Shown one piece after another: positions 53,979 through 57,122 of a stretch of DNA of 57,314 nucleotides. A program made the translations under genes and the position numbers. How positions within the stretch are numbered: the stretch's first letter is position 1; each line of letters starts with the position of its first letter. Below the pieces are notes generated by a model. That model saw only the letters and a program-made list of their open reading frames with translations, was not told where the DNA came from and searched no databases. This stretch comes from Dehalococcoidia bacterium (GTDB lineage Bacteria; Chloroflexota; Dehalococcoidia; Lucifugimonadales; Lucifugimonadaceae), in assembly GCA_012270805.1 (NCBI GenBank), contig JAAXHR010000342.1, forward strand, positions 1 through 57,314, written 5' to 3'.

Positions 53979-54743
53979 TCATTTGTCCTTCAACCCCATA
54001 TCCCGCAGTAGCTCACAGACGATATGGATAATCATACTGTGAACGTCTTCGATCACTCCGTAGTTCTCGGACTTGACGATCACCAACGGGTCGAGGTCGC
54101 GTTTCTCTATCGACCGATCAGGATAAGTGTCGCCTATCAAACCAATCCCTTTCTGTCCCGTCGTATAGTTGAAACACGACGCCAGTCTTGTTACGTTCTT
54201 TGAACGCCCCGAACACGAAAAGACGACAAGCACATCCTCAACGTTCCTGCCCGAAGGTAAAGACCTTGGCCCCTGAAACATTCTTCGGTCAAGACCTTTT
54301 TCGTACCCGCGATCGTTGCTAAGGGCTGTTAGGCTAACCGGATTTGCCACAAGGCAGTTAGTGGAAAAACCGAACACGTCCAAGTGTCCCGACAGGTGAA
54401 GCGCGTTTGCGGCCGACCCACCGTTACCGGCGATGTAGACGGTTCCGCCTGTGCCGTGGACGGCCTTCAGTATCTTGGCGATCTGGTAGACATCCATCGC
54501 CCGTATTGACCGGCTAGCGGTTAAGATGTCGTCTTGATACGAGACGATCTTGTGAAAGGCTTCTTCGGGAACTTCGAACCCTGTGTCACGTTGACGCTGG
54601 ATTTCATTCCATGCCTCTGGCCCTTGTTCGATCCAAGTCTTGTTTTTCCGAAGCGGAGCAAACGGCGGCAGTTTCGAACCATCGGTGCGTTCATAGAATC
54701 GTTTCGGAATATGAATGCGATCACCAAAGGTTGACGACATCAC
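53979..54743 (-). CDS. SIS-domain sugar-phosphate isomerase (GmhA-like) with ~60-aa N-terminal extension
   Basis: GGTVYIAGNGGSAANALHLSGHL and VLVVFSCSGRSKNV. Confidence 0.7.
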   Translation of the reverse strand: MMSSTFGDRIHIPKRFYERTDGSKLPPFAPLRKNKTWIEQGPEAWNEIQRQRDTGFEVPEEAFHKIVSYQDDILTASRSIRAMDVYQIAKILKAVHGTGGTVYIAGNGGSAANALHLSGHLDVFGFSTNCLVANPVSLTALSNDRGYEKGLDRRMFQGPRSLPSGRNVEDVLVVFSCSGRSKNVTRLASCFNYTTGQKGIGLIGDTYPDRSIEKRDLDPLVIVKSENYGVIEDVHSMIIHIVCELLRDMGLKDK

Positions 54744-55891
54744 TTCGACTCCCCGTAGAACTCACGTACCTTGCTGATTGTGTAATCTACCTGTTCGTTA
54801 GACAGGAACGGATGCAACGGCAAGGTGACATGTGTGTCAGCGAACCGTTCCGCCCGTGGGAAGTCACCCTTCACGTATCGGCCTTCGTTCGCCTTCTGGA
54901 GATGGAGCGGGATCGGATAGTGAACTTTCGCCTCAACACCTTCTTCGTTCAGAAAGTCGATCAGGCGATCACGGTCTTCACACTCGAATTGAAACAGGTG
55001 ATAGACGTGCGAACCGATAGGATCAGGTCTTGGTGGTAGTGATACCCCATCAATCCCCTGCAACCCTCCACGGTAGACCGACGCCGCCCACTGTCGGTGC
55101 CTTGTGTACTGTCTTTCGTGCTTCAGCACTTCCAGTCCGACGATAGCCTGAAGTGTCGAGAGCCGATGGTTGTAGCCATACACGTCCTGGTGATCGCGGT
55201 CTGACAGGCCATGATTACGAAGGTAATGGAGCTTCTGTTTTATCGTTACATTATTCGTAACGATCATACCTCCATCACCCATCACGTTAATGTTCTTCAG
55301 GGGGTGTAACGAAAAACATGAAGTCTCGTATTGTCTCCCTACACCGATTCCTGCCGCTTCGAAGGCACCGACAGCCTGGGCCGCGTCTGCGATAACTGGA
55401 ATGTCAACACGACCCATGAACGTTTGATCCGATGGGAATTTATCAAACGGAAACTCACATAGACGACCGCCCCAATGTACCGGTACGACGGCAGCGAAGT
55501 TATTCCAGTACCCTGCCGAGTAGTCGCCCCAATCTAGACAGTAATCTTCACCGATGTCCATGAAGAACGGCGTCGCTCCGGCCTGTTTGATCGATCCGGC
55601 TGTAGCAACGAAGCTGATCGCCGGTAGAGCTACTATGTCGCCCTGACCGATGCCTTCCGCCTTCAATGCTAGAAAGATCGCGTCGGTTCCGTTGGAGACA
55701 CCGACCGCATACTCTCCGTCCGTCGCCTTCGCCCACTCACGCTCGAATTCCTCGACCTGTGGGCCGAGTGTCCAGCGACCGACTTTCATTTCGTCGCTGA
55801 TCGCATTGATAATCTTTCCTCCAAGATCATTCAGCGGCGAGAACTCTTGTGGAAGGTAGTTATACGGGACTCGCATCTTCGTTTGTGTCAT
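54740..55891 (-). CDS. DegT/DnrJ/EryC1/StrS-family PLP-dependent sugar aminotransferase
   Basis: Overall pattern ...GPQVEEFEREWA...VSNGTDAIFLALKA...SFHPLKN...HYPIPLH. Confidence 0.85.
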   Translation of the reverse strand: MTQTKMRVPYNYLPQEFSPLNDLGGKIINAISDEMKVGRWTLGPQVEEFEREWAKATDGEYAVGVSNGTDAIFLALKAEGIGQGDIVALPAISFVATAGSIKQAGATPFFMDIGEDYCLDWGDYSAGYWNNFAAVVPVHWGGRLCEFPFDKFPSDQTFMGRVDIPVIADAAQAVGAFEAAGIGVGRQYETSCFSLHPLKNINVMGDGGMIVTNNVTIKQKLHYLRNHGLSDRDHQDVYGYNHRLSTLQAIVGLEVLKHERQYTRHRQWAASVYRGGLQGIDGVSLPPRPDPIGSHVYHLFQFECEDRDRLIDFLNEEGVEAKVHYPIPLHLQKANEGRYVKGDFPRAERFADTHVTLPLHPFLSNEQVDYTISKVREFYGESK

Positions 55892-55902
55892 GTTGTTCCT
55901 TT

Positions 55903-56889
55903 CTAAAATCCGTTTAACATGATTGATTTCATCCGCTCGGTGTTCCGATAGATCGGATCATTGTAGTCAGACACACCGCCTTTCTTGAAGAACTCGATAT
56001 TGCGATCAATGGCGACGTGTAGCGGGGTAGCGGCAGACCACTTCACAACCTTCTCTGCCTTAGTTGAGTCCATCATGTAATGACGGTTGTCTGCCTTCGA
56101 CGCATCAACTGTCAGCGCCGCTTTCGTCTTTCTCTGAACAATCTCCGCTATGTCCCGTGCCGTCATGTTAGCCCCGCCGATGTTGAACACCTGACCGTCG
56201 ATAGTCTTCGGATCGCAATCTAGTAATCGCCTATAGAACCTGACTGCATCTCCGATGTACAGATTGCACCGGTACTGATCGCCACCCCACACGTTGATAT
56301 GTTTCTCGAAGTACGCTTGGGCGGAAAAGATATTAACAATAGTATCAAGTCTCATACGAGGCGCTGGCCCGCAGAGCGTAGCCATCCGAACGACGGTGCC
56401 CGTCATTGACGTACTAGAGTCGGCCAGCCGGATAACAGGGTCTTCCGCCTCTAGCTTAGTGAGTGCATAGAAGGTCAACGGATTAGGCTCTGTGCGCTCC
56501 GTAGCGGGGCGTTCTGTCGTTCCGTAGACGGAACTACTCGAAACGTATATAAATCGCTGTACGCCCATCCTGAAGGCCGCAGAAACGATATTTGACGTGC
56601 CTTGTATGTTGATCTTTCGGCCAAGGACAGGATTCATGTCTACAAGGTCGTCAGTGACGATAGCTGCCAGATGAATTATCGCCCACACATCACGACAGGC
56701 GAGACGGACATATTCGAAGTCTGTGATCGACCCTTTAATGAACTCGACGTTCGGTGTGTCCTCTATCGAGTTGCCGAACATCATCGTGTCGTATACACGA
56801 ACGTCGTACTGTTGGGCCAGAAGCGGCACCAGCGCCGTCCCGACGTAGCCGAGTCCGCCTGTTACGAGGATTCGCTTACGATCTGGCAT
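55903..56889 (-). CDS. NAD-dependent sugar epimerase/dehydratase (SDR)
   Basis: Start MPDRKRILVTGGLGYVGTAL (Rossmann GxxGxxG) after AGAAAGGA. The upstream 63 codons of the track ORF look non-coding in this frame. Confidence 0.85.
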   Translation of the reverse strand: MPDRKRILVTGGLGYVGTALVPLLAQQYDVRVYDTMMFGNSIEDTPNVEFIKGSITDFEYVRLACRDVWAIIHLAAIVTDDLVDMNPVLGRKINIQGTSNIVSAAFRMGVQRFIYVSSSSVYGTTERPATERTEPNPLTFYALTKLEAEDPVIRLADSSTSMTGTVVRMATLCGPAPRMRLDTIVNIFSAQAYFEKHINVWGGDQYRCNLYIGDAVRFYRRLLDCDPKTIDGQVFNIGGANMTARDIAEIVQRKTKAALTVDASKADNRHYMMDSTKAEKVVKWSAATPLHVAIDRNIEFFKKGGVSDYNDPIYRNTERMKSIMLNGF

Positions 56890-57122
56890 CGTCTTTGATC
56901 CTTTCTGTTCCCTCCGCGATCTTCGCCATGTGTTGGTAGTCCGGCGTGACCATTTCAACCCCTGCGCCTTCATATCGTTGTTCGGGCATATCGGGATGTT
57001 AGATATAGACCGCCACCATCGGGACGCCTGGGAAGTCTTCTTGTATTCCCCAATCGACAGCAAGTACCGAGCCATCACGATAGTCGAGCATCGCTAGAAG
57101 AAGCTCTTGAGTGAGAACTAGC

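Follow-up and report, generated by a model that had tools for sequence, protein, structure and literature searches.

A sugar-nucleotide gene cassette fixed among the head genes of an uncultured marine siphophage lineage, and its counterpart in a widespread, unnamed bacterial operon

The contig JAAXHR010000342.1, deposited with a Dehalococcoidia bacterium assembly (GCA_012270805.1), was analysed over its whole length of 57,314 bases (52.6% guanine plus cytosine, GC), hereafter referred to as the window. Its genes for a terminase, a portal-MuF fusion, a protease, a capsid protein, a tape-measure protein and tail proteins mark it as a siphophage genome, and its source is an uncultured marine tailed phage. 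We describe here a block of sugar-nucleotide enzyme genes in this genome, together with a glycosyltransferase (GT) gene that accompanies them. All enzyme genes of the block are encoded by the minus strand, flanked on one side by the portal-MuF gene and on the other by the genes for the prohead protease and capsid protein. Families were assigned with Pfam, with NCBIfam (June 2026; equivalog cut-offs) and by sequence search of the PDB. A first-pass annotation of the window, made from its letters and open reading frames (ORFs), had named an epimerase/dehydratase, an aminotransferase, a SIS isomerase, a nucleotidyltransferase-kinase, a radical S-adenosylmethionine (SAM) enzyme and a two-subunit thiamine diphosphate (ThDP) enzyme, and had placed them between portal and protease. 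All were recovered by Pfam and NCBIfam at or near the positions it gave, and the flanking genes are as it had proposed. The features of the block and its boundaries are as follows.

53979..54743, minus strand: GmhA-like SIS isomerase of 254 amino acids (PF13580, 31.9 bits; NCBIfam gmhA, 52 bits, cut-off 209)
54740..55891, minus strand: sugar aminotransferase of the DegT/DnrJ/EryC1 family, dependent on pyridoxal 5'-phosphate (PLP) (PF01041, 271 bits)
55903..56889, minus strand: extended short-chain dehydrogenase/reductase (SDR), an oxidoreductase of nucleoside diphosphate (NDP)-sugars (PF01370, 124 bits)
4..1377, minus strand: fusion of an N-terminal cytidylyltransferase-like nucleotidyltransferase with a C-terminal PfkB sugar kinase (PF01467 and PF00294)
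2645..3796, minus strand: radical SAM enzyme with a C-terminal SPASM/twitch-type cysteine set (PF04055 and PF13186)
4597..5580, minus strand: ThDP enzyme, E1 beta-like subunit (PF02779, 73 bits; TPLSE motif with the ThDP-activating Glu)
5994..6893, minus strand: ThDP enzyme, alpha-like subunit of pyruvate dehydrogenase (PDH) E1 (PF00676, 139.5 bits; PDH_E1_alph_y, 214 bits, cut-off 394)
11914..12960, minus strand: phage-lineage GT-A glycosyltransferase of 348 amino acids, soluble (sub-threshold Anp1 match, no Pfam family above threshold; AlphaFold2 model)
13657-16875, minus strand: portal-MuF fusion with an intein, upstream boundary of the block (PF04860, 220 bits, with PF04233 and Intein_splicing)
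52756-53721, minus strand: HK97-type prohead protease, downstream boundary of the block (PF04586 and TIGR01543)
51249-52751, minus strand: major capsid protein of 500 amino acids, a candidate acceptor (61-62% identity to proteins with a Phage_capsid Pfam domain in the related contigs L001 and L007)

The block runs through both ends of the window. Bases 57305-57314 are an exact copy of bases 1-10 (CGTCTACAGC), and with this 10-base terminal overlap the window is a circularly permuted or circular contig. Independent confirmation that its two ends are neighbours comes from related phage contigs, in which the kinase fusion is followed by the SDR, DegT and SIS genes on a single uninterrupted contig. 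The two lines of evidence bear out the earlier proposal that the gene block wraps through the window ends. The DNA of the window is present in runs labelled 'coral reef metagenome' and in runs with another organism label; contigs from those DNA runs are short and do not cross the junction.

Nine related phage loci were compared with the window (L001, L007, L010, L011 and L093-L097). The last five are IMG/VR contigs and were found with an alignment of the glycosyltransferase; a scan of IMG/VR with the fusion protein alone found nothing. In the contigs with the closest homologues of the fusion protein, the gene order is portal-MuF, GT, E1 alpha, E1 beta, radical SAM, fusion, (small ORFs), SDR, DegT, SIS, protease and capsid. 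Genes for the portal, GT, E1 alpha, radical SAM and cytidylyltransferase-PfkB proteins occur in all nine loci, mostly in one order, and those for E1 beta, SDR, DegT and SIS are likewise found, single exceptions apart, in each locus whose contig extends far enough. L010 and L011 are distant members of the GT family, and in both the GT gene again directly follows portal-MuF and precedes the same enzymes; in L011, the radical SAM gene lies ahead of the E1 pair. Most of the window enzymes share 33-46% identity with their counterparts in L001 and L007, while the GT reaches 51-55% and the radical SAM enzyme 64-65%; their motifs are kept. The identity of the radical SAM protein to these two phages is as high as that of the capsid protein, and it ranges from 44 to 65% across the nine loci.

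In GC content and in GC content at third codon positions (GC3), the cassette agrees with the structural genes and with the rest of the genome, and a recent horizontal transfer of the cassette was rejected on this ground. Because its composition matches that of the genome, and because identities of 33-65% among the phages go together with kept motifs, the cassette is regarded as an old and selected trait of the phage lineage. The cassette and the GT are a fixed trait of the whole uncultured lineage. The first-pass annotation had overlooked this, and it had likewise overlooked that the enzyme set is a conserved bacterial operon.

Hundreds of bacterial genomes encode proteins with 57-62% identity to the radical SAM protein, with 464 confirmed matches among the species representatives scanned. 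These bacteria include Pelagibacteraceae (SAR11), SAR116, Azospirillum, Rhodospirillales, Planctomycetota, Myxococcota, Nitrospinaceae and Elusimicrobiota. We examined 80 bacterial loci anchored on the radical SAM gene, counting genes within 10 kb of it; many of the loci without partners are truncated contigs. The cytidylyltransferase-PfkB fusion was found in 51 of the 80, the SDR in 50/80, DegT in 48/80, and the E1 alpha/beta pair in 46-47/80. The association of these genes is far beyond chance, both in the phages (9/9 loci) and in the bacteria (about 46-51 of 80 loci). An own SIS gene is present in 18/80 bacterial cassettes, which fits the use of the housekeeping GmhA elsewhere. The bacterial gene order is stereotyped, namely fusion, (SIS), SDR, E1 alpha, E1 beta, DegT, DegT, a 360-amino-acid protein of unknown function, and radical SAM; the phages are without the second DegT, the 360-amino-acid unknown and the NUDIX gene of the bacterial operon. 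The E1 pair of the phages has its orthologues in the E1-type pairs of bacterial cassettes (33-42% identity). In some other bacteria, the fusion and the SDR are accompanied by a split transketolase, together with a kinase of the APH type and a protein weakly similar to HAD enzymes, and orthology of the phage E1 pair to these split transketolases was rejected, with 24-29% identity or no match.

The full operon is found in the cultured Azospirillum oryzae KACC 14407, on the complete plasmid NZ_CP054615 (194104-223222), where its genes carry generic names only. This locus comprises two extra SDRs, the fusion kinase, SIS, SDR, E1 alpha/beta, two DegT genes, the unknown gene, radical SAM and NUDIX, followed by three glycosyltransferases. 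Since a cultured strain carries the operon, its chemistry is directly testable. Close to the operon are a lasso-peptide-like cluster and three genes annotated as 'tail fiber protein'. The same operon arrangement occurs in a Rhodospirillaceae metagenome-assembled genome and in another contig. Bacterial cassettes sit in surface-glycan clusters with GT2/GT4 enzymes, sulfotransferases and methyltransferases. Full-text literature searches found no description of this enzyme combination, and every gene of the set is generically named: the enzymes constitute a conserved, widespread and unnamed bacterial operon.

By profile-based assignment, the enzymes fall in one coherent sugar-nucleotide pathway and not in unrelated ones, as the first-pass annotation had held. 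A motif check found the catalytic motifs intact in all eight block proteins, apart from residue replacements in the SIS protein. In NCBIfam and the PDB, this isomerase has no matches other than GmhA and DiaA (best PDB match 1e-14), and it keeps the GmhA-specific motifs GNGGS, NDRGYE and SCSGRS. Its relatives have 174-207 amino acids against 254 in the window, which points to an N-terminal extension or a later true start. Compared with Burkholderia pseudomallei GmhA (His64/Glu68/Gln175/His183), both histidines are kept, whereas Glu68 is replaced by His and Gln175 by Glu. Copies in bacterial cassettes have Asp at the position of Glu68; the change of Gln175 to Glu and a 6-residue deletion adjoining position 68 are found across the cassette-type SIS family.

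The reading frame of the fusion extends to 1389, and in the database copy the start is at 1359. Its NCBIfam scores are all below cut-off: 89 bits for HldE (cut-off 521), 85 for rfaE_dom_II (181) and 36 for rfaE_dom_I (345). For the cytidylyltransferase half, rfaE_dom_II is the best model, with its 85 bits against 37 bits for the generic family model. The best PDB matches of the fusion are 3GLV ('lipopolysaccharide core biosynthesis protein') and 5X9Q, which we take to be HldC. The motifs TPGH (16-19), IRSTTR (131-136) and GAGD (399-402) are present, and the domain order is the reverse of that in HldE, in which the kinase is N-terminal and the transferase C-terminal. The fusion family comprises at least 840 clusters from phages and bacteria, and the closest homologues of the window protein are on phage-sized metagenomic contigs. 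Among GenBank phages, only short nucleotidyltransferase stretches were matched, in cyanophages and in Streptomyces phage Karp.

The reading frame of the SDR is open up to 57078, and homology begins at the ATG at 56889. RmlB-type 4,6-dehydratases carry a catalytic trio of Thr/Ser-Asp-Glu before YxxxK. The window SDR has the motifs GGLGYVG and YALTK, and SSSSVYG at the position of the dehydratase TDE. From these residues, it should oxidise or epimerise rather than dehydrate; lacking the Asp-Glu pair of the dehydratases, it lends no support to the 'deoxy' that the first-pass annotation had assigned to the product. The best PDB match of the SDR is 6VO6 (1.5e-32), with which it has the motif PRMRLD in common. 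Going by the depositor's molecule name, we take 6VO6 to be Cj1427. Cj1427 is a GDP-heptose C4-dehydrogenase (PMC10680097).

For the DegT protein, the best PDB match is 3UWC, a nucleotide-sugar aminotransferase of Coxiella (5e-75), followed by DesV, QdtB and WbpE, which are C3 aminotransferases; the PLP lysine motif SLHPLK is at residues 194-199. The E1 alpha subunit has the ThDP-Mg motif GDS-x28-DNGYA, and its best PDB match is human PDH E1 alpha. The C-terminal domain of the E1 beta subunit is diverged, with no Transketolase_C match. No E2, E3 or lipoyl domain was found in any scanned ORF of the window. The radical SAM protein has the CxxxCxxC motif at C56/C60/C63 and a further set of invariant cysteines (C227, C280, C298, C346 and C350). 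In its structural model (predicted local distance difference test score, pLDDT, 68), the best fold match is DesII, with a template modelling (TM) score of 0.58, and a weak match to the NCBIfam model rSAM_desII was also obtained. DesII deaminates an NDP-4-amino sugar, made by a DegT enzyme, to a 3-keto-4-deoxy sugar. By analogy, a DesII-like step of the radical SAM enzyme could give a deoxy sugar. In GenBank phages, the radical SAM protein has one distant match, with 24% identity.

The first-pass annotation had predicted a GT-A-like glycosyltransferase at 11914..12960, and structural modelling agrees with it. In an AlphaFold2 model built on 30 homologues (pLDDT 79.7), the top matches in the PDB and BFVD are all GT-A enzymes (among those in the PDB, B4GALNT1, STIV A197, COLGALT1, ppGalNAc-T2 and Mnn9), and the DxD motif (D142/D144) is invariant in the family. 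The family comprises 104 clusters, all on contigs of <=58.5 kb, which are phage-sized, and is absent from the 80 bacterial loci examined. In every relative, the GT gene lies directly after the portal gene, which it abuts or overlaps. No match to the window DNA, to the capsid protein or to the glycosyltransferase was found in GenBank phage records.

From family relationships, we infer both the compounds involved (substrate, nucleotide, product and acceptor) and the order of the reactions, as follows. The GmhA-like SIS protein would convert sedoheptulose-7-phosphate to heptose-7-phosphate, the PfkB half of the fusion would phosphorylate C1, the 7-phosphate would be removed by a host phosphatase or not at all, and the cytidylyltransferase half would then yield an NDP-heptose. 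The Cj1427-like SDR would oxidise a ring hydroxyl (C4 by analogy) without 6-deoxygenation, and DegT would aminate the keto group, taking a 4-keto to a 4-amino sugar. The radical SAM enzyme would rearrange or oxidise the amino sugar, one possibility being a DesII-like deamination to a 3-keto-4-deoxy sugar. The stand-alone E1 alpha/beta pair, with pyruvate, would add a two-carbon branch to the keto sugar, as Plm8/Plm9 and AviB1/AviB2 do, and the GT-A enzyme would transfer the finished sugar. E1 alpha/beta pairs such as Plm8/Plm9 and AviB1/AviB2 add a pyruvate-derived C2 branch to NDP-4-keto sugars, and YerE is analogous (PMC4802897).

We put at roughly 50% the probability that the block is a complete and functional late-infection pathway to an NDP-activated, modified C7-derived sugar, which the GT moves to an acceptor of phage origin, the most likely being a protein of the head or of another part of the virion. 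The parts of this reading differ in strength. The nearest characterised relatives are heptose enzymes for the SIS protein (GmhA), for the cytidylyltransferase domain (HldE domain II/HldC) and for the SDR (6VO6, taken to be Cj1427), and a heptose is the best-supported reading of the substrate, plausible from these relationships. Three points limit it: no equivalog threshold is reached, the SIS Glu is replaced and the kinase half is weakly HldE-like. The first-pass route from sedoheptulose-7-phosphate to a deoxy-amino, modified heptose is supported in part, a heptose-like and aminated product being plausible and 'deoxy' finding no basis in the SDR. An amino sugar is plausible from the family of the aminotransferase, and a C2 branch with a radical rearrangement is likely by analogy with the characterised systems. 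As to the acceptor, the GT is soluble and belongs to a phage-only family, its gene lies at the portal, and the block is in the minus-strand packaging-head-tail region; a phage-made acceptor, and most simply a virion protein, is therefore the most likely target. A more specific version, which we hold tentatively and with the odds against it, is that these phages make an undescribed amino-heptose with a pyruvate-derived C2 branch, reshaped by the radical SAM enzyme to a nine-carbon skeleton, and coat their capsid with it via the phage-only GT-A enzyme, the same pathway of seven to ten genes building a surface sugar in SAR11, SAR116, Azospirillum, Planctomycetota and many further bacteria.

Several results weigh against the reading of the block as a complete heptose route ending on a virion protein. 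No block enzyme passes an equivalog cut-off, and NCBIfam (June 2026) has no equivalog for any member. As the first-pass annotation had noted, a GmhB-type phosphatase is missing: neither the block nor the remaining scanned ORFs yielded one, or any other HAD phosphatase, and the block's small ORFs have no Pfam match, to HAD or otherwise; bacterial cassettes offer no better GmhB candidate than a weakly HAD-like neighbouring gene. The peptide maturases SkfB and SuiB match the radical SAM model, with its pLDDT of 68, about as well as DesII does. In three RNA runs that carry the label of the best DNA run, no read of the window was found; scans for promoters and terminators gave nothing above shuffled expectation, and so no direct support for or against co-transcription. 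The GT-A fold does not identify the acceptor, because GT-A folds also occur among DNA- and lipid-directed transferases, and several early-region proteins without a family could hide a base-modifying enzyme. With Glu68 replaced by His and six residues deleted, the substrate of the SIS protein could be another ketose phosphate, and the likeness of the PfkB half to kinase models is confined to its C-terminal third and only weakly HldE-like. The last two points would suit a pathway that starts from something other than sedoheptulose-7-phosphate, be it a different ketose phosphate (a hexulose, or an octulose as in lincosamide biosynthesis) or a chain that the ThDP enzyme builds or extends as the first step. 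The catalytic Glu of GmhA is replaced and its loop deleted across the cassette-type SIS family, and some bacterial versions replace the E1 pair by a split transketolase, which would be compatible with a role in chain building. Against such a start, the SIS protein, the cytidylyltransferase domain and the SDR are each nearest to a heptose enzyme (the SDR through 6VO6, taken as Cj1427), and the 18/80 bacterial cassettes with their own SIS fit reliance on housekeeping GmhA in the others. We consider a different starting sugar improbable.

The same pathway might instead serve an acceptor other than a virion protein. Placement of the sugar on phage DNA, as a base hypermodification against restriction comparable to glucosyl-, arabinosyl- or heptosyl-hydroxymethylcytosine, has precedents in phage clusters for heptose on 5-hydroxymethylcytosine (5hmC), one of them with a HAD/APH enzyme, a cytidylyltransferase and a GT (bioRxiv 10.1101/2023.12.21.572611), and in DNA arabinosylation pathways of phages that use SIS-, HAD- and nucleotidyltransferase-like logic (PMC13326640). 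In L011, the sugar cassette also includes a gene with weak likeness to C5 DNA methylases; in the window, an N6/N4 methylase adjoins the terminase, and several early proteins are without a family. However, no dCMP/dUMP hydroxymethylase, TET/5mYOX or phage DNA polymerase was recognised with Pfam and PHROGs among the scanned ORFs; replication looks host-dependent (a DnaC-like loader and RuvC), the cassette lies in the head-morphogenesis block and not among the replication genes, and it is common to bacterial surface-glycan clusters. A DNA target therefore seems very unlikely to us. That last observation speaks rather for a sugar placed on host lipopolysaccharide, capsule, S-layer or flagellin, whether for receptor masking, superinfection exclusion, avoidance of cell debris by progeny or upkeep of a host glycan pathway. 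The likely host groups (marine Alphaproteobacteria, SAR116 and SAR11) carry the same cassette, and the missing GmhB implies reliance on host enzymes. The GT is soluble, however, and its family is on phage-sized contigs only; no flippase, polymerase, membrane (Gtr-type) GT or integrase was recognised in the scanned ORFs of the window, and in every relative the genes are within the late structural block, an unusual site for conversion genes. We regard a host acceptor as unlikely.

The proposed pathway to a virion-bound sugar has partial counterparts among characterised systems. The bacterial NDP-heptose pathways comprise GmhA-HldE-GmhB-HldD, which leads to ADP-heptose, and GmhA-HddA-GmhB-HddC with Cj1427 and its partners, which leads to the GDP-heptoses of the Campylobacter jejuni capsule. 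With these the window shares a GmhA-like SIS protein, a PfkB kinase and nucleotidyltransferase on one polypeptide, and an SDR whose nearest solved relative is 6VO6 (taken to be Cj1427). It differs from them in the reversed HldE order, the lack of GmhB, the replaced SIS Glu and the scores below equivalog cut-offs; it is also without a C3/C5 epimerase or C4 reductase, and continues instead with an aminotransferase, the ThDP E1 pair and the radical SAM enzyme. The E1 pair is likened by family and context to Plm8/Plm9 of paulomycin, AviB1/AviB2 of avilamycin and the single-subunit YerE of yersiniose: it is a stand-alone E1 alpha/beta without E2/E3, in a sugar-nucleotide cluster and beside an enzyme that makes a keto sugar. 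Plm8/Plm9 and AviB1/AviB2 act on 6-deoxyhexoses in actinomycete antibiotics, whereas the sugar of the window is heptose-like and its cassette is found in phages and Gram-negatives.

The DesI-DesII-DesV route to desosamine likewise combines DegT enzymes with a radical SAM enzyme. The best model match of the window protein is DesII, DesV is among the top DegT matches, and bacterial cassettes have two DegT genes flanking that logic; however, the window radical SAM enzyme has five extra invariant cysteines (an auxiliary cluster), its fold match to DesII is unspecific, and the phages have one DegT only. In the cases of virion glycosylation known to us, phage GTs draw on host sugar pools. The lineage of the window instead has its own seven-enzyme route with ThDP and radical SAM chemistry, fixed in the head gene block, and a GT unrelated by sequence to any GenBank phage record. 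What it would share with virion glycosylation in mycobacteriophages (Freeman et al. 2023, as cited in PMC12582341) and with DNA glycosylation in T-even phages and 5hmC glycans is a phage GT that acts on a phage-made macromolecule, which for the window is a prediction.

The remainder of the window contains the following further features.

17401-18711: large terminase
39835-42201: tape-measure protein
1563..1953, minus strand: five of the tRNA genes (ARAGORN and Rfam)

An HK97-gp10-like protein and a distal tail protein are also encoded, and the plus strand holds replication and early genes (a DnaC-like loader, RuvC, HNH and helix-turn-helix (HTH) proteins). The window has ten tRNA genes (Gln, Asn, Met, Leu, Asp, Ser x2, Gly, Leu, Met), on the minus strand and interleaved with the pathway genes, at 1563-1953, 8589-9242 and 53781-53849. 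Between two of the tRNA clusters, inside the sugar block, lies a gene for a protein with TROVE (Ro60-like) and vWA domains (9621-11084, minus strand), which is absent from the related phage loci; no Y RNA was found near it, the Rfam gathering scan having given tRNAs only. Small Cys-rich, zinc-ribbon-like ORFs are located between the pathway genes on the minus strand (1374-1568, 57123-57281, 11706-11924 and 3771-3998). The one at 11706-11924, after the GT gene, and another small ORF at 4125-4439 are conserved in relatives.

The intein of the portal-MuF protein spans residues 738-1038 (Pfam Intein_splicing), which correspond to window positions 13762-14664 on the minus strand; the portals of relatives (706-742 amino acids) are without an intein. 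Wholly within it, and antisense to it, a 285-amino-acid ORF on the plus strand (13765-14622) has HTH repeats and a sub-threshold match to a Vsr/REase_MTES_1575-like nuclease, and may be a homing endonuclease. The N6/N4 DNA methyltransferase gene that adjoins the large terminase is at 18926-19774 on the minus strand, and the corresponding position in L011 holds a gene for a ParB-N6_N4 methylase. The capsid gene is immediately followed by a gene for a 154-amino-acid Gly/Thr/Ser-rich protein (50694-51158, minus strand), which has 37% identity to its counterpart in L001 and no family match; it may be a decoration protein of the head and a possible acceptor of the glycan. A gene for nicotinamide phosphoribosyltransferase (NAMPT), an enzyme of NAD salvage, is at 34886-36307 on the plus strand and possibly counters an NAD-depleting defence. 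Beside it, a 280-amino-acid protein (33826-34668) has no family match.

Phage glycosylation is known mainly in the form of single GTs that work on host sugar pools, or as DNA glucosylation. What is new here is a lineage that keeps a seven-enzyme route with thiamine and radical SAM chemistry, and its own transferase, inside its head-assembly genes. If the proposed sugar and its place on the capsid are as we tentatively suggest, the phage would open the way to a sugar pathway that is both new and ecologically common, possibly with mimicry of the glycans of the host surface. The same enzyme set is present in hundreds of bacterial genomes, including those of the most abundant marine bacteria. Identifying its product would add a bacterial sugar pathway to those known, and would reveal the benefit that a marine phage draws from the decoration of itself, its DNA or its host.

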